Virus record (IMG/VR): IMGVR_UViG_3300047440_000809
Span: 1 to 64,000 of that record
Length of the DNA stretch: 64,000 nucleotides
Source of the DNA: a virus
Reading direction: 5' to 3' (one strand)
The position numbers and the translations under genes are program-made. Below, piece after piece: positions 27,414-48,316 of the stretch. The notes below the pieces were generated by a model. The model made no database searches and had not been told where the DNA came from. It saw nothing but the letters and a program-made list of their open reading frames with translations. Position 1 is the first letter of the stretch. Every line of letters starts with the position of its first letter.

Positions 27414-27667
27414 CACGGGCTGGACGCCTCCACGCTGTCTGTCCCGCCTGTCCAGTTGCACGGTATGCACGGGCACACGCAGTAGGTCGTGACCTTCAGC
27501 GCGTGTCCGTTGGAGCACACCATCTGCTTGTGTGTGGCGCTCTGATTGTGCCGGTGCTCGCGGCCCGCATCGTCGAAGAACCTGTTGATGGCCAGCAGCG
27601 TCGTATGACTATCGAGCTGCTTGATCGTCGACGTCAGCCCGAGACGCTTACACTCGGGGCAGGTCAC
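27413..27667 (-). CDS. Cys-rich hypothetical protein
   Basis: CPEC, CSNGH, CxCxCxxC. Confidence 0.6.
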   Translation of the reverse strand: MTCPECKRLGLTSTIKQLDSHTTLLAINRFFDDAGREHRHNQSATHKQMVCSNGHALKVTTYCVCPCIPCNWTGGTDSVEASSP

Positions 27668-29466
27668 CGCTGGAACGCCTCCGCCGGCTCGTACGGTCCG
27701 GTCTTGCCGATGCGGTGCATGAGCCCGCGCCCGGTCAGCGCGCGCTTGTAGTTCGCGAACGTCCCGCTGCCGAGCTGCATGTCTGCGGCCTGGGCCAGAT
27801 CCTCATCCGTGGCGCTGCCGACCGTCACCACGAGATCGAGCATCTGGCACACCTTCTCCGTGCCGATCTCTTGCTTCCAGTAGTCGAGCAGGCCCTTCTT
27901 GTCGGTCGGGGGCATCTGGACGTCGATCGGGTAGCCGCGCCCGGCGTCGGTGATGGTCATGTTCGCACCGTCCGTCGTCGCGTAGCCCCCCTGTATGAGC
28001 GCGCGCTTGCGGTTGGCAGTCGTCCCCGACGTGGGGCTCACGCCGGCGATGTGCGCGACGTTCTTGAAGGGCATCGAGGGCAGCCCCATCGCCAGTCCTT
28101 GAAGGAGCGCCCCGAGCATACGCTGGGATTTCTCGGGGAGGGCGTGCTCGCCGTTGGACGCCACGATCGCCTTCGCCACACGCACGCCAGCTCCCACAAA
28201 CGGTTTCGGGAGCTTGATCGTGTCGCGACCCGGCTGCACCGTCTTGGTCGTCGTGGTGGTTACGACCTTCGGCGGGACTGGCGTGAGGGCCTGCCTGCCG
28301 AGCGCCACGAGGTTGCCGATCGACGACACGACGACCTGCTGCGCCTGCGCGACACGGTCGACGGCCGCCTCGATCAGCGCCTTGAAGCCGTCTTCACGGT
28401 CGCCAAGCTTCTCCGCGAAGCGCTCGATGCGCTTCAGGTCGGCCTCACGGAATACCGGGACGGGTTTTGTCTTGCCGGTCTTCTGCACGATGGGCGCCGG
28501 CACGAGCTTCGCCGCGCGCTCCAACTCGGCGATACGGGCCTTCAAGTCCTTCTCCGTCATGAGCTTCTCCTCGGCCTCTTTCGGCAGGTCCGCAAGCTGC
28601 GGCAGCAGGTGCCGGATCTTGGCCGTCGGAGGCGGCGGAGCAGACTGCCGGCGTCCGGCCTCGGGGTGCTCGGTCTGCACGTCGCCGATCGTGACGAGCG
28701 TAGGTTCGAGCACGAACGCGCGACCGAGCGCAAAGAAGGCTCCCGGTTCGAGCGTCTTGACGTTGTTGAAGAACTCGGGCTTGTTCGCCCGCGCGATCCC
28801 GAGGTTGCCTGCGGCGCGCTCTCGGTCGATATCGATGAACGTCTGCCCAATGAGCACGTTCTTCAGCTCGGCGGCGAAGTCCTTCGACAGCTTGCCGAGG
28901 CGCTGGGTCGCCGCCACTACACCATACCCGCGCTTGCGCCCCTTCGCCGCGAAGTCGATAAGTGCATGCCGGCACGTCTTCTCGTCGCGGCTCTCCGTGA
29001 TGCCGTGGCCTGGCTCGGGCGCCAGCTCGTGTGCCTCGTCCACGTAGAGCAGCAGGTCGCGCCACAGCTTCTTCGGCGCGTCGACGAGCGCCTGGACGAA
29101 GGTCGCGACCCACAGCGGGCGCTGCGCCTTCGACATCTCGAAGAGGTCGATGACGGCGCTCGTGCCGAGTTGGAGTAGCCGGTGGGCAAGGAGCTTGGCA
29201 GAGCGGATGTCGGCGGGCGTGTCGCCGCCCTTCCCCACCAGCACCACGTCGAACTTCTCACGGAGCGTAGAGAACTCGCCTTCGGGGTCGATGATGATCT
29301 GAGGCACGCGCCCGAACGACTGCTCGATCATCCGGCGCAGGAGCCAGCTCTTGCCGCCGCCGCTATTTGCCTGCACGAGCAGATTCGAGCGCAGGATGAT
29401 ATCGAGGTCGGCGCGGAACGGCTTGTTCGTCCCTGTGAAGACGCCGAGGTCTACACGGCGGGTCAT
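27664..29466 (-). CDS. HerA/DUF87-family ATPase with C-terminal winged-helix-like regions
   Basis: QANSGGGKS, IDPEGEF, VDEAHEL, KGRKRG, ATQR. Confidence 0.85.
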   Translation of the reverse strand: MTRRVDLGVFTGTNKPFRADLDIILRSNLLVQANSGGGKSWLLRRMIEQSFGRVPQIIIDPEGEFSTLREKFDVVLVGKGGDTPADIRSAKLLAHRLLQLGTSAVIDLFEMSKAQRPLWVATFVQALVDAPKKLWRDLLLYVDEAHELAPEPGHGITESRDEKTCRHALIDFAAKGRKRGYGVVAATQRLGKLSKDFAAELKNVLIGQTFIDIDRERAAGNLGIARANKPEFFNNVKTLEPGAFFALGRAFVLEPTLVTIGDVQTEHPEAGRRQSAPPPPTAKIRHLLPQLADLPKEAEEKLMTEKDLKARIAELERAAKLVPAPIVQKTGKTKPVPVFREADLKRIERFAEKLGDREDGFKALIEAAVDRVAQAQQVVVSSIGNLVALGRQALTPVPPKVVTTTTTKTVQPGRDTIKLPKPFVGAGVRVAKAIVASNGEHALPEKSQRMLGALLQGLAMGLPSMPFKNVAHIAGVSPTSGTTANRKRALIQGGYATTDGANMTITDAGRGYPIDVQMPPTDKKGLLDYWKQEIGTEKVCQMLDLVVTVGSATDEDLAQAADMQLGSGTFANYKRALTGRGLMHRIGKTGPYEPAEAFQR

Positions 29467-29551
29467 CGGCGCCACCAGACCTTCCCGAGAACTAAGCCGA
29501 CGATCACGCCGAAGACGTAGCCGGCGTTGAAGTCTCCATGCCAGAGGTGAC

Positions 29552-29839
29552 TCACGGGTGGGCCTTTCGCAGGTCGAGAATGGCGGACATAACTCGCGCA
29601 GGCTCGCTGTCTGCCCGGTATCCGTGGATCGCCAGCTCGTAGTCCTCGACTGGGCGAAGCGCCTTCTCCCGCGCCGCTTTGATCGCCTCGTCCTGAGCGT
29701 CCTCGTAGTAGTACCGCTCCGACTCACGCACGATCGCGATGATGTGGTCGCGCTCCAGAGTCCGAGGCTGCACCTCCAGCCAGACGATGTCCTCGGCGAT
29801 GAGCTGCCGGTAGGCGATGCGCGTGAGCTTGCCGCTCAC
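29552..29839 (-). CDS. Hypothetical protein
   Basis: Coupled ORF. Confidence 0.55.
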   Translation of the reverse strand: MSGKLTRIAYRQLIAEDIVWLEVQPRTLERDHIIAIVRESERYYYEDAQDEAIKAAREKALRPVEDYELAIHGYRADSEPARVMSAILDLRKAHP

Positions 29840-31173: not shown

Positions 31174-31574
31174 CCCTTCGTGATATCAACGGGGGTGGAG
31201 GGTGTCAAGCTATTATCACGAAGAGTGTAGCGCGCGACGAACTGAACGAGCCCGGCGGGCGAGACGCGGTCTAACGCTAACGCTCCCGGCTTGATGGCCT
31301 CGACAGCGCGCTTGGTACTCACCACCACACGCTCCGTTAGCTGCGTGAGCGTCACGATGTCAGTCTTAAGCACGGATGCAATCGCCGCCAGGTCGGACAT
31401 GCCAATCGAACGTACGCCGCGCTCAACACGAGAGACCCACGCTTGTGAGATCCCACTGGCCTTAGCGAGTTCGCCCTGTAAAAGCCCCGCCTTCAGTCGC
31501 AGTATCTCGATGATGGCACCGAGAGCGTAGTCGAACAAACCCTTCTCTCGTACCACTAGGCGTTGGCTAGGCAT
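31170..31574 (-). CDS. XRE-family HTH regulator
   Basis: LRLKAGLLQGELAKASGISQAWVSRVERG. Confidence 0.85.
   Translation of the reverse strand: MPSQRLVVREKGLFDYALGAIIEILRLKAGLLQGELAKASGISQAWVSRVERGVRSIGMSDLAAIASVLKTDIVTLTQLTERVVVSTKRAVEAIKPGALALDRVSPAGLVQFVARYTLRDNSLTPSTPVDITKG
31180..31208 (-). promoter_or_regulatory. sigma70-like promoter overlapping a TGATATCA box
   Basis: Minus strand TTGACA-N17-TATCAC with extended TG. Confidence 0.5.
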
Positions 31575-32190
31575 ATTCCACCCCGACCGTCGCGTACTCG
31601 AACGGCTTCCAGGTTTCCCCGCAGTGCTCACACAGGTGCGTCCGGTGGACACGCGTGCTCGACCAGACGCCGCGGTCGATGTGCTGGCCGCCGCACTTCG
31701 GGCAGTTGAGGACCATCGGCACGGGCGTGCCCAGCTTGAGCACGATTCCCCGGTGGAAGGTTCCGCGGTCGGCGGCCTTCGTCACCTTTATCGCGTCGAA
31801 CAGCTTCGCGCCGAGCAGCTCCCGAATCGTGTCGACGACCTCCCACAGGTCCACCGCCTCACCGATCACGAGCGCCTTCACCCCCGAGTCGATCGCCTCG
31901 CACAGCTCCTCGGTCTCCTCGACGAGCTTGGCGCGCAGGAGCCCGAGCATCTCCTTCGAGTCAGCCACGCGCGTCTCGCACTTCTCGCCATGCGCCTCGA
32001 ACCACTGCGGCACGCGATGCCGAACAAGCTTCTCGGTCTGGGGACGTACCGGATGCTCGATTGGAACTTCGCGCTCGACCACGTCGAGGATGGAACGAGC
32101 AAGCGCGTTCGGACCGGCCTCATCCCCGTAGTTGCGGATGACGTCGCCGATCAACACCATCAAGCGCGTGTCGTCACGCAGGTGCTTCAC
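31567..32190 (-). CDS. MazG-like NTP pyrophosphohydrolase with C-terminal Zn ribbon
   Basis: KLVR, KLVEETEEL, EAVDLWEV, KxxxRGTF; CPKC...HxD...HRTHLCEHC. Confidence 0.7.
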   Translation of the reverse strand: MKHLRDDTRLMVLIGDVIRNYGDEAGPNALARSILDVVEREVPIEHPVRPQTEKLVRHRVPQWFEAHGEKCETRVADSKEMLGLLRAKLVEETEELCEAIDSGVKALVIGEAVDLWEVVDTIRELLGAKLFDAIKVTKAADRGTFHRGIVLKLGTPVPMVLNCPKCGGQHIDRGVWSSTRVHRTHLCEHCGETWKPFEYATVGVEYA

Positions 32191-33101
32191 GCTCCACCTC
32201 CCCACGCCGATGCCACGGCGTCGAGCACGTTCACGAGCTGCGCGCCGCACGCCGTCTTCGACAAGTAGACGCCGTTCGCTCCCTCCATGAGGCGCGCGAC
32301 GAACCCATCTACGTCTCGCGCCACGGCGGCACCGATCCGCGCCAGCTCGTCCCCCGTCACGCCGACCGTGGCGAGCGCCGCGATCTTCTCGCCCTTGTCC
32401 TTCACGACCTCGCTCGACGCCACCGCCGGGGACTCGCCGAACATGAAGGCGTCGCGCGGGACCTTGTTGATATCACGGTGTCCCCACGCCCCTTCGAACG
32501 CCACCGCCAGCACTTCGAGGTCTTTGTCCGCCAGCTCGATCGTGTGGCAGGTGTCGCACGGATCGGTGTGCGCAGGCACGAGCTTGTCCGGCACGTGCAA
32601 CGTCCAGGTGTGTGACGGCTGGAGGGTCACAACCATCTCCTGCACGGGGACGGCGATTCGAGCGCGGACCTTCTCCCATGCCGCGGGGTCGGGCGGCGCC
32701 GGCGTACGAGTCGCCGTCGTCTTGCCCTCGAAGGGGGGCACGAGCGCGTGCACGCGGAGCCAGCGGACGGCGGTCTTGTTGGGGAGGCGCGACGCGAACG
32801 CGTGGGCGATCGGCGCGACCCGCGCGTCGTAGGTCTCGGCGTGCCAGCGCAGGTAGGCGTTGGCGGCGGTCCGCTCGACCCGGTGGTTGAGCAGCGAGAG
32901 ATCGGCCAGCCTCCCGCCTCGCCGGAGCCGGGCGACCGTCTGCACGTAGATCTTGGCCACGTGGGAGGCGACGCGGCCGCGGGCGATGAGCCCGACGAGG
33001 AAGGCGGCGGCGTCCGGGAAGTCGTCGATCGTCCGCGGGGGGAAGGTGTACGTCTGGCCGTTGGCGACCACGATAGAGGGGGATCCTGAGTACCTGGGCA
33101 T
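32187..33101 (-). CDS. Hypothetical protein
   Basis: About 300 aa, first gene left of the AT-rich inverted repeat. Confidence 0.65.
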   Translation of the reverse strand: MPRYSGSPSIVVANGQTYTFPPRTIDDFPDAAAFLVGLIARGRVASHVAKIYVQTVARLRRGGRLADLSLLNHRVERTAANAYLRWHAETYDARVAPIAHAFASRLPNKTAVRWLRVHALVPPFEGKTTATRTPAPPDPAAWEKVRARIAVPVQEMVVTLQPSHTWTLHVPDKLVPAHTDPCDTCHTIELADKDLEVLAVAFEGAWGHRDINKVPRDAFMFGESPAVASSEVVKDKGEKIAALATVGVTGDELARIGAAVARDVDGFVARLMEGANGVYLSKTACGAQLVNVLDAVASAWGGGA

Positions 33102-33150: not shown

Positions 33151-33250
33151 GCCTCCCGCGCGCGCAGGATCCAAGAATTCTTATCCATTTTATTACACAC
33201 ACGTATTATATCGGATAAGAATACTTACATCGTGCGCGCGCGCGAGGGGC
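33151..33250. repeat. AT-rich imperfect inverted repeat (candidate origin or cruciform)
   Basis: Arms 33151-33186 and 33213-33250 (CGCGCGCGCA..GAT..AAG.ATTCTTATCC) around an AT-rich spacer, at the strand switch. Confidence 0.75.
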
Positions 33251-33255
33251 AAAGA

Positions 33256-33495
33256 GTGATACAGGCGGAGCCGGTGGCCGAAGGCGACAAGGTAGTGGTG
33301 GCGCTCGGCACGGGCATCGGTCGGCTGGTTTACCCCTGCGTCGTGTCGAACGACCCCGTGCCCCACCCTGCCGGTGCCTTCTTCCGCGTGTCCCTCGACA
33401 TGTGCCCTCCGCGCCTGGAGGGGATCACCTGGGCTCGTGGATGGGAGGGTCTCGACGCGGACGCGTTCGTCGTCGCGGTGGCGCTCGGGTCGTGA
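33256..33495 (+). CDS. WARGW-family cassette protein 1
   Basis: EGITWARGWEGLDADAFVVAVALGS*. Confidence 0.8.
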   Translation: MIQAEPVAEGDKVVVALGTGIGRLVYPCVVSNDPVPHPAGAFFRVSLDMCPPRLEGITWARGWEGLDADAFVVAVALGS

Positions 33496-33902
33496 AGGTC
33501 AGTGTCAGCACCGCGACCATCACGAGGCCGTCGTCGCCGGCGATGTCCCCGCGCGCCCGGCTCAAGGACGGCGACCACGTCGTGCTGTTGTTTCTCGGGA
33601 GCGTCGTGGAGATCATCATCTCGACCACGCGCAGCGGTACGCGGGACGACGGGCGCTACTGGGCGTCGCCGGCGATGTCCCCACGCGCCCAGCTCAAGGA
33701 CGGCGACCACGTCGTGCTGGCGTTCCTCGGGAGCGTCATGGAGATCATCGTCTCGACCGAGCGCAGCGGTACGCGGGACGACGGGCGCTTCTGGGCGAAG
33801 CCAATCGTGTTCGCGGCGAACGAAGAGGGGATCGCGTGGGCTCGCGGGTGGCGGACGCCAGCGGCACGTGCGTTGAGGGCCTTCGTGGGGCTGACGACGT
33901 GA
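33492..33902 (+). CDS. WARGW-family protein 2 (internal duplication)
   Basis: EEGIAWARGWRTPAARALRAFVGLTT*. Confidence 0.8.
   Translation: MKVSVSTATITRPSSPAMSPRARLKDGDHVVLLFLGSVVEIIISTTRSGTRDDGRYWASPAMSPRAQLKDGDHVVLAFLGSVMEIIVSTERSGTRDDGRFWAKPIVFAANEEGIAWARGWRTPAARALRAFVGLTT
33532..33797 (+). repeat. 132-bp tandem duplication
   Basis: PAMSPRAxLKDGDHVVLxFLGSVxEIIxSTxRSGTRDDGRxWA twice. Confidence 0.9.
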
Positions 33903-33938
33903 TGGACGTGCGCGAGACCTCGTGATATCAGTAGAGTC

Positions 33939-34247
33939 GTGATATCGGCAATCGTGTGGGGCACTGCCGTCGTTGGCGTCGTAGAGGCGGCCTGGATCGT
34001 CCTGATGGCCCTGGCAGTGGTGCCGTTCAAGGTGTCCGTCGTGTTCAACGAGAAGGTGTGCCTGGGGCGAGTCTCCTCACGAGCCTGGCTACAGCCCAAG
34101 ACCGTGTTCATCAGGATCGTAAGCCCCGTGGTTGCGAACGATCGAGTCATCGGCGTGACTCGCGGCGCCTACGGCGTCACGTGGTGCTACGGATGGGAGG
34201 GGCGCGCGTCGCAGGCACTTCGAGCGTTGGTGGCGCTCACGTCGTGA
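33939..34247 (+). CDS. WARGW-family protein 3 (N-terminal TM)
   Basis: YGVTWCYGWEGRASQALRALVALTS*. Confidence 0.75.
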   Translation: MISAIVWGTAVVGVVEAAWIVLMALAVVPFKVSVVFNEKVCLGRVSSRAWLQPKTVFIRIVSPVVANDRVIGVTRGAYGVTWCYGWEGRASQALRALVALTS

Positions 34248-34531
34248 GGAGCGTGATGGCAAGCCTCCGGCAGACCTGGCGCGAGTGGCGCTGGAACCGC
34301 CGCTTCAGTGGAGCACCTGTGCTGTTTCGACACTCGTGTAGCGTGTGCAAAGCCGGTGCATACGTGGGCTTCATCCACAAGATGATTGACGGACAGGTAC
34401 TGCTCTCCGTCACGGTGGTGCCTGCGCAGACCTTCGACGTAGCTCTTGAAGATGAGGGCATATCGTGGACGCGCGCGATCGAAGGAGAAGCAGCTGACGC
34501 GTTTCGAGCGGCAGCGGTGTTGACGACGTGA
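34244..34531 (+). CDS. WARGW-family protein 4
   Basis: DEGISWTRAIEGEAADAFRAAAVLTT*. Confidence 0.75.
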   Translation: MRSVMASLRQTWREWRWNRRFSGAPVLFRHSCSVCKAGAYVGFIHKMIDGQVLLSVTVVPAQTFDVALEDEGISWTRAIEGEAADAFRAAAVLTT

Positions 34532-34773
34532 GCGCCACCAACAAGAAGCTCCCGGTGAAGGCACTGGCGATCGTCGGCGACGCAGTCGTCAAGGGATGGC
34601 TGATCAGCCGCAACGGTGATGAATGGTACTGGCGCGACACCGATGGCGGTAACCTGTGGACGCGGAGCGAACGCGCCAAAATGTTAAACAGCGATCGTGG
34701 CATCTACTGGGCGCTAGGCTGGGACGGCGAAGAGGCCGACGCGTTCCGTGCGATGCGAGGGCTCGTGTCGTGA
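34528..34773 (+). CDS. WARGW-family protein 5
   Basis: DRGIYWALGWDGEEADAFRAMRGLVS*. Confidence 0.8.
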   Translation: MSATNKKLPVKALAIVGDAVVKGWLISRNGDEWYWRDTDGGNLWTRSERAKMLNSDRGIYWALGWDGEEADAFRAMRGLVS

Positions 34774-34991
34774 CAGCCGGCGACAAGATCACCGCAGCGC
34801 TGGACGGGCGACTCGTTGCCGACGTCGCTTGGATTGTAGATGGTCACAAGTTCACGGGGCAGCTGCGTTATGCTGGTGAGATACGTGTGTTCGACGAAGC
34901 GGATGAAGGCATCACCTGGCTGCGCGGTTGGCGCATGGAGGATGAAGATGCAGTAAAAGCATTCCTCGCAGCGCAGGCGTTGACGTCATGA
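34770..34991 (+). CDS. WARGW-family protein 6
   Basis: DEGITWLRGWRMEDEDAVKAFLAAQALTS*. Confidence 0.8.
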   Translation: MTAGDKITAALDGRLVADVAWIVDGHKFTGQLRYAGEIRVFDEADEGITWLRGWRMEDEDAVKAFLAAQALTS

Positions 34992-35479
34992 AGAAGCCGA
35001 CGAAGGGCAACAAGGTCACCGTGCTGATCCGAAGTCGCAGCCGCCTCCGTAAGGGCACGCTCGCGACACCGCTCGGTCATGACGGCTTCACCGCAAGTCT
35101 ACAGGGAGGCGGGTGGGCCACGTGCCTGGCGAAAGATGAAGGCTCGACGTGGGTGCGTGGTTGGCACGGGAATGAGAGCGTCGATGGAAAGGCGCTCCTT
35201 GCAGCGGCTGCGCTCACCGAGGTGAAGGCGCCAACCGGTGTGCGCTACTACGCTGTCGATGGCGTGCACGGCGACGACCCCAGCGCCGGGTTCTCCGATG
35301 TCTCGCCCGCCGAGGCGTCCACCCGAGCGTTCAAGACTTTGGGGGAGTTGAGGGCCGCCCTCCCAGCAGCTGGCGGCAGCCGCAAAATCGAGATCACGAT
35401 ATCGCGTGGTGGTGGCGTTGTGGACGGCGTCAAGCTTCACTGGCCTGACCGGGTCGTTGTGGTCCGAGGCGCCAAATGA
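34988..35479 (+). CDS. WARGW-family protein 7 fused to a fibre-derived domain
   Basis: DEGSTWVRGWHG...ALLAAAALT followed by [12 protein letters not shown]... Confidence 0.8.
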   Translation: MKKPTKGNKVTVLIRSRSRLRKGTLATPLGHDGFTASLQGGGWATCLAKDEGSTWVRGWHGNESVDGKALLAAAALTEVKAPTGVRYYAVDGVHGDDPSAGFSDVSPAEASTRAFKTLGELRAALPAAGGSRKIEITISRGGGVVDGVKLHWPDRVVVVRGAK

Positions 35480-35892
35480 AGAAGCTCAAGGTCGGGCAGC
35501 GCGTGACGGTGGTCGGCAAAGCCTCGGGCAAGATCGTGCACGCCACGTTTTACGGCGTGAGGCCGGCGCCGGACGGCGGCATGCGGATGGAGGTGCTGGT
35601 ACAGGTACTCGGCACGGTCGAAGTCCGTCGCGAATTCGAAAGCGAAGAGGGCATCACCTGGGCCCGCGGCTGGCGTGGCAAAGCGGTCGACGCCCTGCGC
35701 GCCTACATCGCGCTCAACGAGGTCCAATCTCCGCCTGACCTTGGCCTCTTCAGTGCCGGCGTCATCGGAAGCTTCATGCGCAAAACCTACGACAGATTCG
35801 TGGCGCTCTCGCCCGAGCAGCAGGCCGCGGTGGCAGCAGCCGGCGTCGCCGCGATCTCCGCGCTTGCCAAGCCCTTAGCTCGGAAGACTTGA
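35476..35892 (+). CDS. WARGW-family protein 8
   Basis: EEGITWARGWRGKAVDALRAYIAL plus C-terminal extension. Confidence 0.8.
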   Translation: MKKLKVGQRVTVVGKASGKIVHATFYGVRPAPDGGMRMEVLVQVLGTVEVRREFESEEGITWARGWRGKAVDALRAYIALNEVQSPPDLGLFSAGVIGSFMRKTYDRFVALSPEQQAAVAAAGVAAISALAKPLARKT

Positions 35893-35926
35893 CATCCGTA
35901 ACGCGAGAACACACCATCTACCCACC

Positions 35927-36160
35927 GTGTCAAGCACCACCCACATCGGCACCGAGATTCGTCGGGTCCGACTGAGCCTCGACATGACGCTGGAGGAGTT
36001 CGGCGAGCGCGTCGGGATCGCGTGGCAGACGATCGCCGCGTACGAGACCGGACGTGCGACGCCTCCGTCCGATCGGCTGTTGCGCATCCTGCACGCGACT
36101 CGAAAGGCCAAGGAGCCGTTCCGGGTCGAGCGGATCGCGCGAGCGCTGGCTGCGGCGTGA
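35927..36160 (+). CDS. XRE/Cro-like HTH regulator
   Basis: IRRVRLSLDMTLEEFGERVGIAWQTIAAYETG; upstream CTTGACA...TGTCAAG inverted pair. Confidence 0.85.
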   Translation: MSSTTHIGTEIRRVRLSLDMTLEEFGERVGIAWQTIAAYETGRATPPSDRLLRILHATRKAKEPFRVERIARALAAA

Positions 36161-36420
36161 ACGAGGTCTGGAGCCACACCTCCTACGCGACCGGTGACGG
36201 CGTCGATGTTCCTGCGCTGGCGTTGCGCATCACGGTCAGACACGACGGCGTGCTTCTGCGAGCTGTGCTGACGTCCGCCACGGCGACCTCCTACCAACTT
36301 TGTGGGCGCCCGGCGGTCGTGTTCGCGCAGGCGCGCGCCGACGAAGGGATCACCTGGGCCCGCGGGTGGGATGGACCGGCCGTGGATGCGCTCGCCGCCT
36401 ACAGGGCGCTCGCGTCGTGA
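36157..36420 (+). CDS. WARGW-family protein 9
   Basis: DEGITWARGWDGPAVDALAAYRALAS*. Confidence 0.8.
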   Translation: MNEVWSHTSYATGDGVDVPALALRITVRHDGVLLRAVLTSATATSYQLCGRPAVVFAQARADEGITWARGWDGPAVDALAAYRALAS

Positions 36421-36606
36421 GCCCGAAACCCCGCCGCAGCCGTGCCAAGCCACGCCGGCACCGGCTGCGCGCCCCCTACTACCGCCCGCGCCGGCCGCTC
36501 TTCTCGGTCACGACCATCGCGCGCACGCTCGACAAGGGGTTCGTGTACCTGACGGTCGCCCTGGAGCGTCTGCTGGCGTCCACAGGCACGTGATAGACTA
36601 GTCTGC

Positions 36607-36888
36607 GTGGCGGTCTGCGAGTTCCTGCGCTGCCCAGGCTGCGGGCACGACAAGAAGGCCGAGCAATTCGGGCTCACACCGAGGGGCAATTTCGACCCCG
36701 ACAACGCCTACCCGAACGAGCTGTCGCTGCGGCGCACCACAATCGGCGGACGCGGCCGCTGTTCGGTCGAGCGCTTCCCTGCGCCGCTCCCCTTCGCGCT
36801 CGGGATGCGCCAGATGCTCAAGTACCGACTCGCCCAGCTCGAAGCTGACATCCGCGCTGCGGGTGTTGAGCTGCCGGACGACGAGTGA
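36607..36888 (+). CDS. Hypothetical Zn-ribbon protein
   Basis: CPGCGH. Confidence 0.6.
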   Translation: MAVCEFLRCPGCGHDKKAEQFGLTPRGNFDPDNAYPNELSLRRTTIGGRGRCSVERFPAPLPFALGMRQMLKYRLAQLEADIRAAGVELPDDE

Positions 36889-36901
36889 TAATTTATTGGC
36901 G

Positions 36902-37135
36902 GTGAAGAACTTCCCCTCGGGGCAGCCCATCGTAGTCGCTGTGCACGGCAGGGTGCTCCAGGCGAAGACGACGCGCGGCGGGCGAAGGCGTGTGCGCTAC
37001 AAGATCGTCAAGGGCCCTCCGGGGTTCTTCGGTCCGAAGTTCCTGACGCTGCGCGAAGAGGGCATCATCTGGGCGCGTGGGTGGGAAGGCGAAGCCGCCG
37101 ACGCCCTTCGAGTTGCTGTTGCGTTATCGACATGA
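36902..37135 (+). CDS. WARGW-family protein 10
   Basis: EEGIIWARGWEGEAADALRVAVALST*. Confidence 0.8.
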   Translation: MKNFPSGQPIVVAVHGRVLQAKTTRGGRRRVRYKIVKGPPGFFGPKFLTLREEGIIWARGWEGEAADALRVAVALST

Positions 37136-37431
37136 GGCTGCACATCGACCGCAACGCGCGTGTGACCGTCGTGCTGCGCGACACCGGCGAGATCGTGCAC
37201 GCATACGTGAAGAAGCCAGGCAAGGAGCTGAGGATCGTGTACGTGCGGGAGGGGACGATCACGTGGGCGCTGAATGTAAAGACCCAGCACTGGAATCCTG
37301 CGCGCCTGACCCCACGCGCCCTCGTTAACTACAACGTCCGACATCGCGACGAAGGCGTCGTCTGGGCGCGCGGCTGGGACGGGCCCGACGTGGATGCGCT
37401 GCGGGCGACCGTGGCGCTCACGACGCGCTGA
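37132..37431 (+). CDS. WARGW-family protein 11
   Basis: DEGVVWARGWDGPDVDALRATVALTTR*. Confidence 0.8.
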   Translation: MRLHIDRNARVTVVLRDTGEIVHAYVKKPGKELRIVYVREGTITWALNVKTQHWNPARLTPRALVNYNVRHRDEGVVWARGWDGPDVDALRATVALTTR

Positions 37432-44294: not shown

Positions 44295-44557
44295 GCCGCA
44301 AGCGCTACTGCCACGCCGGCTACGACGACGAGGGCCGGGCGCTCTTCACCGAGCACGGCTCTGACGGCACCGAGATGCGCACCATCGTCGGGTCCCCCGA
44401 ATCCGGCAAGCCCATACCACCGGGGCGCGGGCTCGCGCTCGTCACGGCGGAGGCGGATGGCAGGCACGTGACCATGGAAGACGTCGTCATGCCGGGGCCG
44501 GCGCAGGTGGCGACCGAGAGCTACCGGCGCGGCTGGGACGCGACGTTCAAGAACTGA
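44291..44557 (+). CDS. Hypothetical protein
   Basis: GPAQVATESYRRGWDATF. Confidence 0.6.
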   Translation: MSRKRYCHAGYDDEGRALFTEHGSDGTEMRTIVGSPESGKPIPPGRGLALVTAEADGRHVTMEDVVMPGPAQVATESYRRGWDATFKN

Positions 44558-44687
44558 TGAGCGCCGCGTAGGCGAGGAGAGCGTCGACGTCGGGGCCCGA
44601 CCAGCCGCGTGCCCACACGATGCCCTCTTCGTGGACGAAGTCCCCGCTGGCCTGCCCGGTCGAGGCACTCCACCAAAACGTTCCGCC
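44547..44687 (-). pseudogene. Start-less WARGW-family fragment (12)
   Basis: Manual translation ...FVHEEGIVWARGWSGPDVDALLAYAALISS*; in-frame TGA upstream and no start; flanked by 11-bp direct repeat TCAAGAACTGA. Confidence 0.7.
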
Positions 44688-44692
44688 TCAAG

Positions 44693-44806
44693 TCAAGAAC
44701 TGAGTATCCAGAGCCAGCGGACCAGCACGCAGAAGCAGTACCCGAGCACGAGCACCAAGAAGACGATGAGCCCGCCCCACCCGATCTTCTCTTTGTCCGG
44801 GTTCAT
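44693..44806 (-). CDS. Small membrane peptide
   Basis: MNPDKEKIGWGGLIVFLVLVLGYCFCVLVRWLWILSS*. Confidence 0.55.
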   Translation of the reverse strand: MNPDKEKIGWGGLIVFLVLVLGYCFCVLVRWLWILSS

Positions 44807-45306
44807 CAGTTGCTCGCCGCGTGAAGTTGTTTGACGACGAGGCTGCCTAGCGCATGTACGGCCCGTAGTTCCGCGCGAGGCAGAACTCGAACGCCGTCTT
44901 GCGTAGCTCGCGGGGGAGCTTCGCGGCCGTGACGATCCGCCCGGCCTCCTGCAAGCGCTTGATGGTCTGATAATTGGCCCCGCGTTCGCGCTTCGCCTCG
45001 GCGCGCTCGCGCTCGATCTTCTGCTTGCGCTCTTCGGCGGCCTTCGCGCGGACGGCCTTCTTGATCGCGTTCACGGCCGCACCGGTCCACCCGCGGCACC
45101 ACCCGTTGCTGTGGCCCTCGGCCGACAGGTAGTGCGATCCACCCGTACCGGCGGGTTTACCGTCCGTCCAGTCGAACGTGTGGCTGTCGATGTTCGTGAC
45201 GGTCGCGCGGATCGTGTTGATGGCGATCAAGACCTTGTCGCCCTTCTTGAGTGCTACCTTCGCTATCGTCTCCATCTCAGTTGCTCCCGGCGTGAAGTTG
45301 TTTGAC
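44806..45306. repeat. 30-bp direct repeat (28/30 identical) flanking ORF 44847-45275
   Basis: TCAGTTGCTC(GCCG/CCGG)CGTGAAGTTGTTTGAC at 44806-44835 and 45277-45306. Confidence 0.85.
44847..45275 (-). CDS. WARGW-family protein 13 (divergent)
   Basis: LKKGDKVLIAI...AEGHSNGWCRGWTGAAVNAIKKAV. Confidence 0.7.
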   Translation of the reverse strand: METIAKVALKKGDKVLIAINTIRATVTNIDSHTFDWTDGKPAGTGGSHYLSAEGHSNGWCRGWTGAAVNAIKKAVRAKAAEERKQKIERERAEAKRERGANYQTIKRLQEAGRIVTAAKLPRELRKTAFEFCLARNYGPYMR

Positions 45307-45798
45307 AGCGTCGCGTACCAGCAGCTCCTCCGACAGCGTGGGGTCGAGACCCGACACGACCGGCTCGAACTCGTACTTCTTGTAGCCCAGCTCCTTGAGC
45401 GCCCCGCGCACGGCATCGAGCTTCATGCGCTGCGCGGGGGCGACCTTGGGCTCGGCAGCGTCCTCCTCCAGCTTCTCCATGAAGTGCCGCTGGACAGTGC
45501 GCCGGCGCTCGGCCACGTGCATCTCGTCGACTACCCTCCCGACGCGTGCCTCGCGCCCGTGCCAGACCCACGAGAAGAACCCGCGGACCGCGCCGTGCGG
45601 GATCACGAGCATCAGCCCGACCCCGAGCATCACGAGCGCCACGAGCGTGGAGCCGGTCTGCCCGAGCAGCGTGGCCGAGGCGCGGGAGATGAGCTGCCCG
45701 ATGAGACCGCACGTGCCGGCGAAGGCGTAGAAGAACGTGGCGGCGAGCAGCAAGAAGCCGATGAGGAGGCGCTTACGGGCGGGGTGGAGGTTCTTCAT
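45277..45798 (-). CDS. Membrane protein with RuvA C-terminal-like domain
   Basis: Two TM helices; LDAVRGALKELGYKKYE...LSEELLVRDAVKQL. Confidence 0.6.
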   Translation of the reverse strand: MKNLHPARKRLLIGFLLLAATFFYAFAGTCGLIGQLISRASATLLGQTGSTLVALVMLGVGLMLVIPHGAVRGFFSWVWHGREARVGRVVDEMHVAERRRTVQRHFMEKLEEDAAEPKVAPAQRMKLDAVRGALKELGYKKYEFEPVVSGLDPTLSEELLVRDAVKQLHAGSN

Positions 45799-46264: not shown

Positions 46265-46609
46265 TCATGGCTTCTTGTCCGTCGTGAGCGCGTGCGCGGC
46301 GATAGCAGCTCGGAAGGACTCCACGGCACCATTGACGACGTCGAGGGTAGGAGCGAGCTTGGCGTGCGGCAAAGACGTAACCGCGAGAGCACACGACGAA
46401 CAGATGGCCACCAAGGACCCCGCGGCGATGACCGTGCCCTGGGGTTCAACACGCAACTGCTGGGTAATCGACTGTCTGAAGTGGTCCTTGCACCGGTCCT
46501 GTTGGCAGAACGGACACACCGCAAAGAACGCCCGGTCGCACCGTGTTGAAGGCTCGCTGTGCGATCCCGGAATCTCCTCGTCACACACGCGCATCGTCCG
46601 TGTCGACAT
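46265..46609 (-). CDS. Zn-finger hypothetical protein
   Basis: CPFC...CKDH, CSSC. Confidence 0.55.
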   Translation of the reverse strand: MSTRTMRVCDEEIPGSHSEPSTRCDRAFFAVCPFCQQDRCKDHFRQSITQQLRVEPQGTVIAAGSLVAICSSCALAVTSLPHAKLAPTLDVVNGAVESFRAAIAAHALTTDKKP

Positions 46610-46950
46610 CACTTCACCCCCAACAGCGCTCGGGCCGCCAAGAACGCCGCGCGAGCTTCGGGTCCGTGGCCGCGCGTCCAGGTGACCATCTCGTCGTTCT
46701 CCCAGACGCCGCCGGTACGTGCACCGCACTTCCAGTAGATGCGGTTACCGCGATCCGTGTGCCACTGCGCCTCGTCGTTCGCGGTGACGGTAGCGCGCAA
46801 CAGCCGCAACGGGCGGTCGAGAACCCATCGACGCGGTTGCTTCTTGCGCGGCTTCGTGAACCCGTTGCGCCCGCGCTCGAACACCTGCGTCGCATCGGAG
46901 CCCGAGTCCACCACCGTGATGCCGAAGCCGATGCAGGGCAGCTCGCTCAT
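46609..46950 (-). CDS. WARGW-family protein 14
   Basis: NDEMVTWTRGHGPEARAAFLAARALLG. Confidence 0.7.
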   Translation of the reverse strand: MSELPCIGFGITVVDSGSDATQVFERGRNGFTKPRKKQPRRWVLDRPLRLLRATVTANDEAQWHTDRGNRIYWKCGARTGGVWENDEMVTWTRGHGPEARAAFLAARALLGVK

Positions 46951-47589: not shown

Positions 47590-47751
47590 TCACGTTCTCC
47601 TCCTCGCTGGTGGTTTCCACTGCTCGAACGCCGCGCTGACGTACTCGCGCAGGGTCATCCCCTGCCAGCTCGCGCGGCGGACCATCGCCATGTACTCCGG
47701 ACCGGAGAGCCGCACGATGAGGTAGCGCATGAGGCCGTCGAGCGTCTTCAT
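47590..47751 (-). CDS. Ribbon-helix-helix-like small protein
   Basis: YLIVRLSGPEYMAMVRRASWQGMTLREYV. Confidence 0.55.
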   Translation of the reverse strand: MKTLDGLMRYLIVRLSGPEYMAMVRRASWQGMTLREYVSAAFEQWKPPARRRT

Positions 47752-48002
47752 GACGACACCAGCGCCATCGCGACGCGGAGCGCACGAACCGTTGTCGAGT
47801 TCTTGTGGTGCCACCCGTGGACCCACGTGACGCCCTCGGCTGCAAGAGCGGCGTACGCACTCGCACCGTACTTCCAGGTGGCGCCAGACAGACGCGCGGT
47901 GTAGTAGCGGAAGTTGGGACCCCCATCGTTGATTGCGTCGACGACACCGTAGAGGACGCGGCCGTCCGTGCTCAGGCTCGTGATCTTGTCGCCGACCTTC
48001 AC
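47748..48002 (-). CDS. WARGW-family protein 15
   Basis: VKVGDKITSL...AEGVTWVHGWHHKNSTTVRALRVAMALVSS*. Confidence 0.75.
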   Translation of the reverse strand: MKVGDKITSLSTDGRVLYGVVDAINDGGPNFRYYTARLSGATWKYGASAYAALAAEGVTWVHGWHHKNSTTVRALRVAMALVSS

Positions 48003-48316
48003 GTCCCCCACCCCTCTACGTGCAGCGGCACCCGCCATGGGATCTCGGCTACCATCCGGTCGCGCGCTTCGTATCGCACCATCACCGCGTCGTACCCGCG
48101 GTCCATCGTGACCCGAGCGGCCCGCGCGCCGCAGCGCCGCCAGTTGCACGTGGGGCAGTGGCAGGGGTTGGTCAGCGAGGATGCGGCGTCGTGCTCGGGG
48201 AGGCGGTTGATGATTCGACGAGACGTGATGACGTCGAGAGCGGCCGTGCGGGCGTTCGCTAACCCGTGGGCGAGCTTGAGCGTGGCAGCGCGGTAGTAGA
48301 GGTCGTGGATGGTCAT
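47999..48316 (-). CDS. Hypothetical protein
   Basis: Coupled; CHCPTC. Confidence 0.5.
   Translation of the reverse strand: MTIHDLYYRAATLKLAHGLANARTAALDVITSRRIINRLPEHDAASSLTNPCHCPTCNWRRCGARAARVTMDRGYDAVMVRYEARDRMVAEIPWRVPLHVEGWGT

Follow-up and report, generated by a model that had tools for sequence, protein, structure and literature searches.

A multigene family of small, predicted β-barrel proteins arrayed in the genome of an uncultured soil virus

The small-gene operons and multigene families of other viruses offer the closest described parallels to the locus examined here. The acr-aca operons of phages combine small early genes, which are mutually unrelated, with a helix-turn-helix (HTH) autoregulator acting on inverted repeats. 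Viral families that gain and lose copies include the multigene families (MGF) of African swine fever virus, the poxvirus 'accordions', the paralogue arrays of giant viruses and the host-takeover module of SPO1. The present locus is an array of eleven small genes sharing a WARGW motif, located at positions 33256-37431 on the + strand of a 64-kb window. The window is the whole stretch of DNA under study and covers positions 1-64,000 of one 104,563-bp contig from an uncultured soil virus (IMG/VR record IMGVR_UViG_3300047440_000809). The contig has a G+C content of ~66% and is classed by IMG/VR as linear and ~86% complete. Together with further copies elsewhere on the contig, the array genes make up a viral multigene family, new and as yet unnamed, whose fold belongs to a known class; ~6 kb (~6%) of the ~105-kb genome is given to it.

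Organisation of the array operon

A six-frame scan for the core W-x-[RYLH]-[GA]-[WHI] plus its flanks detected eleven + strand open reading frames (ORFs) at 33.2-37.4 kb; on the - strand it found four further copies at 44.5-48 kb, and another two lie at 84-86 kb. Profile scans added weaker members at 83.5, 86.0, 86.3 and 100.2 kb, bringing the genome total to 21 family copies, one of which (m12) is a start-less fragment. A degenerate DNA pattern of the core matches six times in the window, against 0.00 matches expected from 100 shuffles. According to start-codon analysis the array forms a 13-gene operon in the order m01-m08, an XRE-type regulator gene, m09, a Cys-containing gene of 93 amino acids (aa), m10 and m11. 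The members measure 73-163 aa in the gene models, and 4-nt RTGA stop/start overlaps are present at eight of the 12 operon junctions. The earlier note on this DNA had described eleven ORFs of about 75-165 aa with the shared motif, units ending in RTGA that supply the next start codon, an embedded XRE gene, an AT-rich inverted repeat at which the array begins, and four more copies at 44.5-48 kb; all of these are borne out, with one of the four copies reduced to 46 codons.

The operon and its upstream repeat comprise the following features, with coordinates and strand.

33152..33247, no strand: AT-rich inverted repeat with 45-nt arms and a 6-nt spacer, 80% complementary, separating the operon from a divergent 337-aa gene (repeat search)
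33256..33495, +: m01, 79 aa; A4 profile E 5e-15; Shine-Dalgarno-like site GAGGGG 5' of a GTG start
33492..33902, +: m02, 136 aa, with an in-frame tandem duplication (gene model; orthologue P0114)
33939..34247, +: m03, 102 aa, WCYGW variant with a hydrophobic N-terminal segment (max KD19 2.51); orthologue P0048, also WCYGW
34244..34531, +: m04, 95 aa, degenerate motif WTRAIEG (profile scan, structure model)
34528..34773, +: m05, 81 aa, WALGW (gene model, profile scan)
34770..34991, +: m06, 73 aa (gene model, profile scan)
34988..35479, +: m07, 163 aa, with a C-terminal extension of ~85 aa (orthologue P0016)
35476..35892, +: m08, 138 aa, with a C-terminal extension that has a hydrophobic segment at its end (orthologues P0020 and P0028)
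35927..36160, +: XRE-type HTH regulator (Pfam HTH_3, E 8e-10)
36157..36420, +: m09, 87 aa (gene model, profile scan)
36607..36888, +: Zn-ribbon-like Cys-containing (CPGC) protein, 93 aa, without the motif and without a family match
36896..37135, +: m10, 79 aa, the member used for structure modelling
37132..37431, +: m11, 99 aa, last gene of the operon (gene model, profile scan)

The inverted repeat at 33152-33247 is a candidate promoter/operator of the array operon. In the one complete relative, described below as G001, the syntenic intergenic region is AT-rich too and has an inverted repeat of its own. A scan for promoter and terminator consensus sequences returned no promoter-like site for the + strand operon, the promoter of which is presumed.

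A second, perfect inverted repeat of 20 nt brackets m04 (34226-34245 and 34523-34542), such that the region containing the m04 stop and the m05 start, read on the opposite strand, matches the 3' end of m03 exactly. RNA folding predicts a long-range stem here, with a minimum free energy of -154.4 kcal/mol (z -2.5). According to this prediction the stem would sequester both start codons, and the repeat could either control translation or be a scar left by an inverted duplication.

Predicted fold and range of the family

The AlphaFold2 (AF2) model of m10, calculated from a 25-sequence family alignment, is a confident single domain with a predicted local distance difference test (pLDDT) score of 90. 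It contains strands at residues 11-16, 19-28, 32-39, 48-51 and 59-61 and a C-terminal helix at residues 66-78. The shared motif, E55-G56-x-x-W59-x-R61-G62-W63...A70-L71...L77, makes up the turn, strand 5 and helix of this domain. The model of m04, the most deviant member, shows the same barrel elements in the same order plus an extra N-terminal helix (pLDDT 79), the family alignment having guided the modelling. A five-stranded SH3-like barrel with a packed C-terminal helix is the arrangement that defines the Tudor and chromo-barrel folds, and the similarity found in fold comparisons lies in the range of a common arrangement; Foldseek searches of the PDB and BFVD gave nothing at E≤0.001. The family domain of ~80 aa is predicted, with high confidence, to be a five-stranded SH3/Tudor/KOW-like β-barrel closed by a C-terminal helix. 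An SH3/KOW-like barrel had been suggested before for the upstream part of the proteins, and the AF2 model and the fold matches support this.

Conservation was assessed in 87 single-domain members. In their N-terminal parts G9 (84%), V12-T-V-V15, A23, V25 (84%) and G29 (96%) are conserved, and in their C-terminal parts E55 (92%), G56, W59, R61 (87%), G62, W63, A70, L71 and L77. Residues 30-50 form a poorly conserved stretch of variable length. The conserved residues probably serve mostly to clasp strand 5 to the helix. As judged from the hydrophobicity pattern, W59 and I57 would face the core and A60 the helix, with A70, L71, A74 and L77 forming the helix face; E55 and R61 could make a salt bridge or a shared ligand site. 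A few members carry added segments, namely a membrane segment in m03 and m08 and a basic helical tail in m13.

The upstream parts of the proteins are homologous as well. A hidden Markov model (HMM) was built from N-terminal parts alone, taken from 84 external members without a BLAST match at E≤1e-3 to a local N-terminal part. Of the 16 local N-terminal parts, it scores 12 higher than any of their 50 shuffles; those of m03, m04, m05 and m14 do not rise above their shuffles. Among 140 motif-bearing external members, the median distance of the motif tryptophan is 23 residues to the C-terminus and 65 to the N-terminus, and this position points to an architecture of the whole family rather than to a tag on different heads. 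The motif is present more than once in 14 of the 140, which are fused two-domain forms.

When 1.84 billion cluster representatives were searched exhaustively with the family profile, 535 proteins were retrieved at E≤1e-3, and the family numbers at least 535 clusters at 50% identity. The matches are typically 70-110 aa long and cover the whole domain, some with two tandem domains. Among 185,579 prokaryote species, represented by one genome each, there was a single match, weak and partial; from this near-absence it follows that the family is essentially viral. The earlier view that the motif belongs to no named family stands: Pfam and PHROG scans of ten local proteins gave no family for the motif-bearing members at E≤1 beyond sub-threshold noise, no NCBIfam model matched, and no Pfam family was matched by more than two of the 87 members (best E 0.006). 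KOW (PF00467) has no sequence match, and the resemblance in G9-x-x-V-T-V-V...G is visual only. A sequence profile search of the PDB returned only noise, including sialidase Asp-box-like strands and uL24 at E 1.3. The nearest cluster in the ESM Atlas scored 0.75 and provided no named lead, blastn of the array against GenBank phages matched no nucleotide relative, and a literature search on the motif and on analogous arrays found nothing relevant.

Two database observations deserve separate mention. The degenerate DNA pattern has one sole return in IMG/VR, an unrelated terminase large subunit containing EGIKWVRGW (L003:1000-2379; EGIKWVRGWDMAAT), which was rejected as a chance look-alike and which contaminates simple pattern searches. 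The source label of P0114, 'chloramphenicol 3-O-phosphotransferase', is almost certainly a mis-annotation, given the size and family of this protein.

Evolution of the copies

Related loci were retrieved using a tighter 16-sequence alignment. The one complete relative in IMG/VR (G001) has 102,927 bp with terminal repeats and carries 17 copies; its core proteins are 45-65% identical to those of the present genome and their order is conserved. A metagenome scan yielded 25 loci with 58-67% G+C, several of them on contigs of 116-150 kb. Within the stretches examined, these loci hold up to 21 copies (L033), with 17 each in L039 and L047. A common frame is kept in the relatives, consisting of the divergent 337-aa gene, the array, a convergent 228-aa membrane-type gene and a 733-aa gene. 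Orthologues of the XRE regulator (49-70% identical in full-length alignments) are found inside the arrays of eight related contigs, and orthologues of the Cys-containing 93-aa protein (41-55% identical) inside those of 12. These two genes are one-to-one anchors within the arrays, and they divide each array into three compartments. The copies before the XRE gene, from XRE to the Zn-ribbon-like gene, and after the latter are distributed as follows.

G0 (this genome): 8, 1 and 2
G001: 0, 4 and 3
L033: 10, 0 and 11
L039: 6, 0 and 10
L047: 6, 4 and 4

Across the related 100-150 kb soil-virus contigs the copy number at the locus ranges from 3 to at least 21. The copy number and content of the arrays are therefore not fixed among relatives.

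The copies themselves are old. No recent duplicates were found in 17 arrays, the best paralogue pairs being 35-49% identical over nearly their full length. Each local member has an external match that beats its best local paralogue (98 vs 25, 164 vs 29, 123 vs 15 and 139 vs 15 bits, for example). The orthologues of m02 (P0114), m03 (P0048) and m07 (P0016) lie together on one 20,366-bp contig, and those of m11 and m14 together on one 68,039-bp contig. One-to-one orthology can no longer be called against G001 and the metagenome arrays. Nine genomes contributed 126 domains to a maximum-likelihood tree, in which the genome label changes 68 times, against 87 +/- 2.8 times when labels are shuffled. 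Most small clades with support pair collinear genes from different genomes (L033-L039, L047-L048); a few pair genes of one genome.

An in-frame tandem duplication of 132 nt (44 codons) is present in m02, where positions 33532-33663 and 33664-33795 are 92% identical. The duplication covers the first barrel strands. As the orthologue P0114 (77 aa) is without it, it is a recent event, and it is the sole young duplication seen in any array. Since paralogue pairs are no more than ~49% identical, the arrays would reflect long-term gain and loss of copies and not the shuffling of cassettes. With high confidence, the pattern is read from the sequences as long-term birth and death with retention, not as a recent 'accordion'.

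Outside the array, the window holds four more family copies.

44547..44687, -: m12, start-less 46-codon 3' fragment of a member (six-frame scan, profile scan)
44847..45275, -: m13, 142 aa, WCRGW, with a basic helical extension (orthologues P0010 and P0018)
46609..46950, -: m14, 113 aa, WTRGH, with an N-terminal extension, from a well-conserved subfamily (nine external orthologue-like proteins)
47748..48038, -: m15, 96 aa, WVHGW (gene model, profile scan)

Two of these copies are bounded by direct repeats. The repeats around m13 (44806-44835 and 45277-45306) are 30 nt long, agree at 28 of 30 positions and copy the last codons and the stop of an upstream 173-aa membrane gene. Those around m12 (44547-44557 and 44693-44703) are 11 nt long (TCAAGAACTGA) and copy the end of an upstream 37-aa membrane ORF (44693-44806, - strand). 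In both cases the next gene regains its context for stop/start coupling through the flanking repeat. Insertion of family genes thus appears to have taken place in whole units, behind stop codons.

A third cluster, at 83.5-87.0 kb on the - strand, contains four or five members with the variants WIRGF, WIRDH and WLRGH, and is interrupted by a 436-aa gene with an N-terminal region that reads GAGYVG. No tRNA genes were found within the 64-kb window. Three neighbours of the array gave domain matches.

27667-29835, -: HerA/FtsK-type ATPase (DUF87, E 4e-7)
31567-32250, -: MazG/PRA-PH-like match, weak and sub-threshold
45277-45798, -: small membrane protein with an FtsK_4TM match just over the cut-off and a sub-threshold RuvA_C-like match

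Alternative explanations and comparison with known systems

On balance, the explanation that we favour is that the genes form a multigene family specific to this virus lineage and built on one small stand-alone domain; taken as a whole it seems to us probable, though by no means assured. Its account of the family and of its evolution is held with high confidence, its account of function with low confidence. What looks like a constant module would be the clasp of the barrel, made of the turn, strand 5 and the helix, and the seemingly variable N-terminus would be strands 1-4. Conservation can still be recognised in strands 1-2, and sequence and length may change freely in the strand 2-4 region. 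Tandem duplication inside one conserved operon would have enlarged the family; this operon has its own XRE-type regulator and a small Cys-containing anchor gene, and would be transcribed from the AT-rich divergent control region and translated largely through RTGA coupling. In close relatives the orthologues are one-to-one and collinear, and distant relatives differ in copy number. As to function, the paralogues may be small binding modules that each recognise a target of their own, and collectively they would probably target host proteins or nucleic acids at an early stage of infection, in host takeover or counter-defence. A few members may be tethered by their added membrane or coiled-coil segments.

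A more specific possibility, which we regard as unlikely, is that the proteins are a repertoire of adaptors, in which the face formed by strand 5 and the helix docks onto a common partner, such as a viral or host machine, and the strand 2-4 region picks distinct targets. The array would then amount to a binder library, encoded in the germline and sharing one scaffold. Such a role is consistent with a mean pairwise identity of 0.51 in the C-terminal part, far above the 0.20 of the rest of the barrel, with the conservation of charged residues of an exposed type (E55, R61, D69 and R72), with the concentration of length and sequence variation in residues 30-50, with the differing copy numbers among relatives, and with the existence of fused two-domain forms. 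However, A60, A70, L71, A74, A76, L77, W59 and W63 fit the packing of a helix on a sheet, so that the conservation may be purely structural; in addition, there is no excess of recent diversification and the common partner is hypothetical. If the proteins were adaptors, copy-number differences would track changes of target in the hosts of each virus, and the targets of the paralogues might be, for example, variable host defence or surface proteins.

We give the same low weight to the possibility that the proteins bind nucleic acids in the manner of KOW, Sso7d or chromo-barrel-like domains, coating or regulating viral or host DNA or RNA, with paralogues differing in preference or timing. Two thirds of the 87 members are basic, with a median isoelectric point (pI) of 9.8 and 41 members above pI 10. 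The N-terminal G-D-x-V-T-V-V...G-x-V resembles a KOW hairpin, and the structural neighbours include a complex of PWWP with single-stranded DNA, the KOW domains of NusG/Spt5, and uL24. Yet 18 of the 87, including m01 and m06, are acidic (pI<6), and high-GC genomes inflate the arginine content; moreover, the members show no consistent match to KOW, Hfq or any other Pfam model. With a fifth of the members acidic, uniform nucleic-acid binding is unlikely.

It is still less probable that the genes encode virion or assembly proteins of a large membrane-containing virus, for instance minor capsid proteins, cement proteins or decoration proteins associated with the membrane. The HerA/FtsK-type ATPase and several membrane proteins are encoded nearby, two members have hydrophobic segments, and small β-barrels often decorate capsids. 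Nevertheless, an operon with an XRE regulator behind a divergent control region, and twenty divergent paralogues of variable copy number, would be unusual for structural parts needed in fixed stoichiometry.

The earlier note had interpreted the array as a modular cassette system, in which a constant 3' segment serves as a recombination arm, as a shared docking or targeting tag, or as both, for diversified effectors. That the constant part is similar as DNA is correct in so far as the 78-nt segments are 62-74% identical, but the similarity does not go beyond what protein conservation brings. The modules have a median nucleotide identity of 0.60 and a longest identical run of 17 nt, and where the amino acid is the same, the codon is the same in 47% of cases, against 38-40% expected from codon usage. 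With codon identity this close to expectation, the synonymous sites are nearly randomised and there is no sign of gene conversion. A comparison of the module DNA did not find a boundary recombination site conserved beyond coding needs.

The N- and C-terminal parts are also inherited together. Among 40 external proteins with a clear N-terminal match to one local member, the best matches of both parts fall on the same member in 21, against ~2.5 expected, and in 13 of 15 among the strongest N-terminal matches; the global correlation of N- and C-terminal identities is r -0.02, the N-terminal parts being saturated. Unusual variants travel with their own N-terminal part, as for WCYGW (m03/P0048) and WARGWRT-AARALRAF (m02/P0114). 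None of the array neighbours contains a recombinase domain, and neither a resolvase/invertase nor a reverse transcriptase was found in the genome. Its only tyrosine recombinase (91513-92145, +; Phage_integrase, E 2e-25) is encoded ~54 kb from the array and is 60% identical to its counterpart in G001. The flanking direct repeats of m13 and the m12 fragment, which suggest that members can be inserted as units, and the differing copy numbers among relatives would suit cassettes, but with homologous, co-inherited N-terminal parts, neither recent duplicates nor chimeras, and a motif that is in essence the structural core of one domain, the shuffling model is largely refuted and very improbable. What appears in small proteins as a constant tag plus a variable head can be uneven conservation within one domain.

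The family occurs only in a little-known lineage of high-GC soil viruses, 100-150 kb in size. Paralogue expansions of this size are uncommon in prokaryote viruses, where genome space is tight, and the long retention of the copies, each with its own orthologue, implies that each is useful. The conserved frame and its variable content mark the locus as a region of repeated gain and loss of copies, and make it an obvious one in which to look for host-interaction functions.

In fold, the domain resembles the chromo-barrel, Tudor and PWWP domains of the 'Royal family' (MRG701, PDB entry 5in1; MRG15, 2f5k; the PHF20L1 Tudor domain, 6l0x), as well as the N-domain of CarD (4l5g), the C-terminal Tudor domain of UvrD/PcrA (5dma, 7egs, 7egt) and the KOW domain of NusG (1m1g). 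However, the modules of CarD, UvrD and NusG are domains of larger housekeeping proteins and are without the WxRGW-helix clasp, and the present family has no Pfam KOW or CarD match. In gene arrangement, the run of small genes behind an inverted-repeat control region, with an XRE-type HTH gene inside, recalls the acr-aca operons, and the arrangement is kept in relatives. In contrast to acr-aca operons, the array holds ~11 paralogues of one fold. The viral multigene families differ from the present one in that here no recent amplification is seen (paralogues ≤49% identical) and the unit is a single 80-aa domain, but they share with it the presence of tandem paralogues in a fixed region, in numbers that differ among related viruses.

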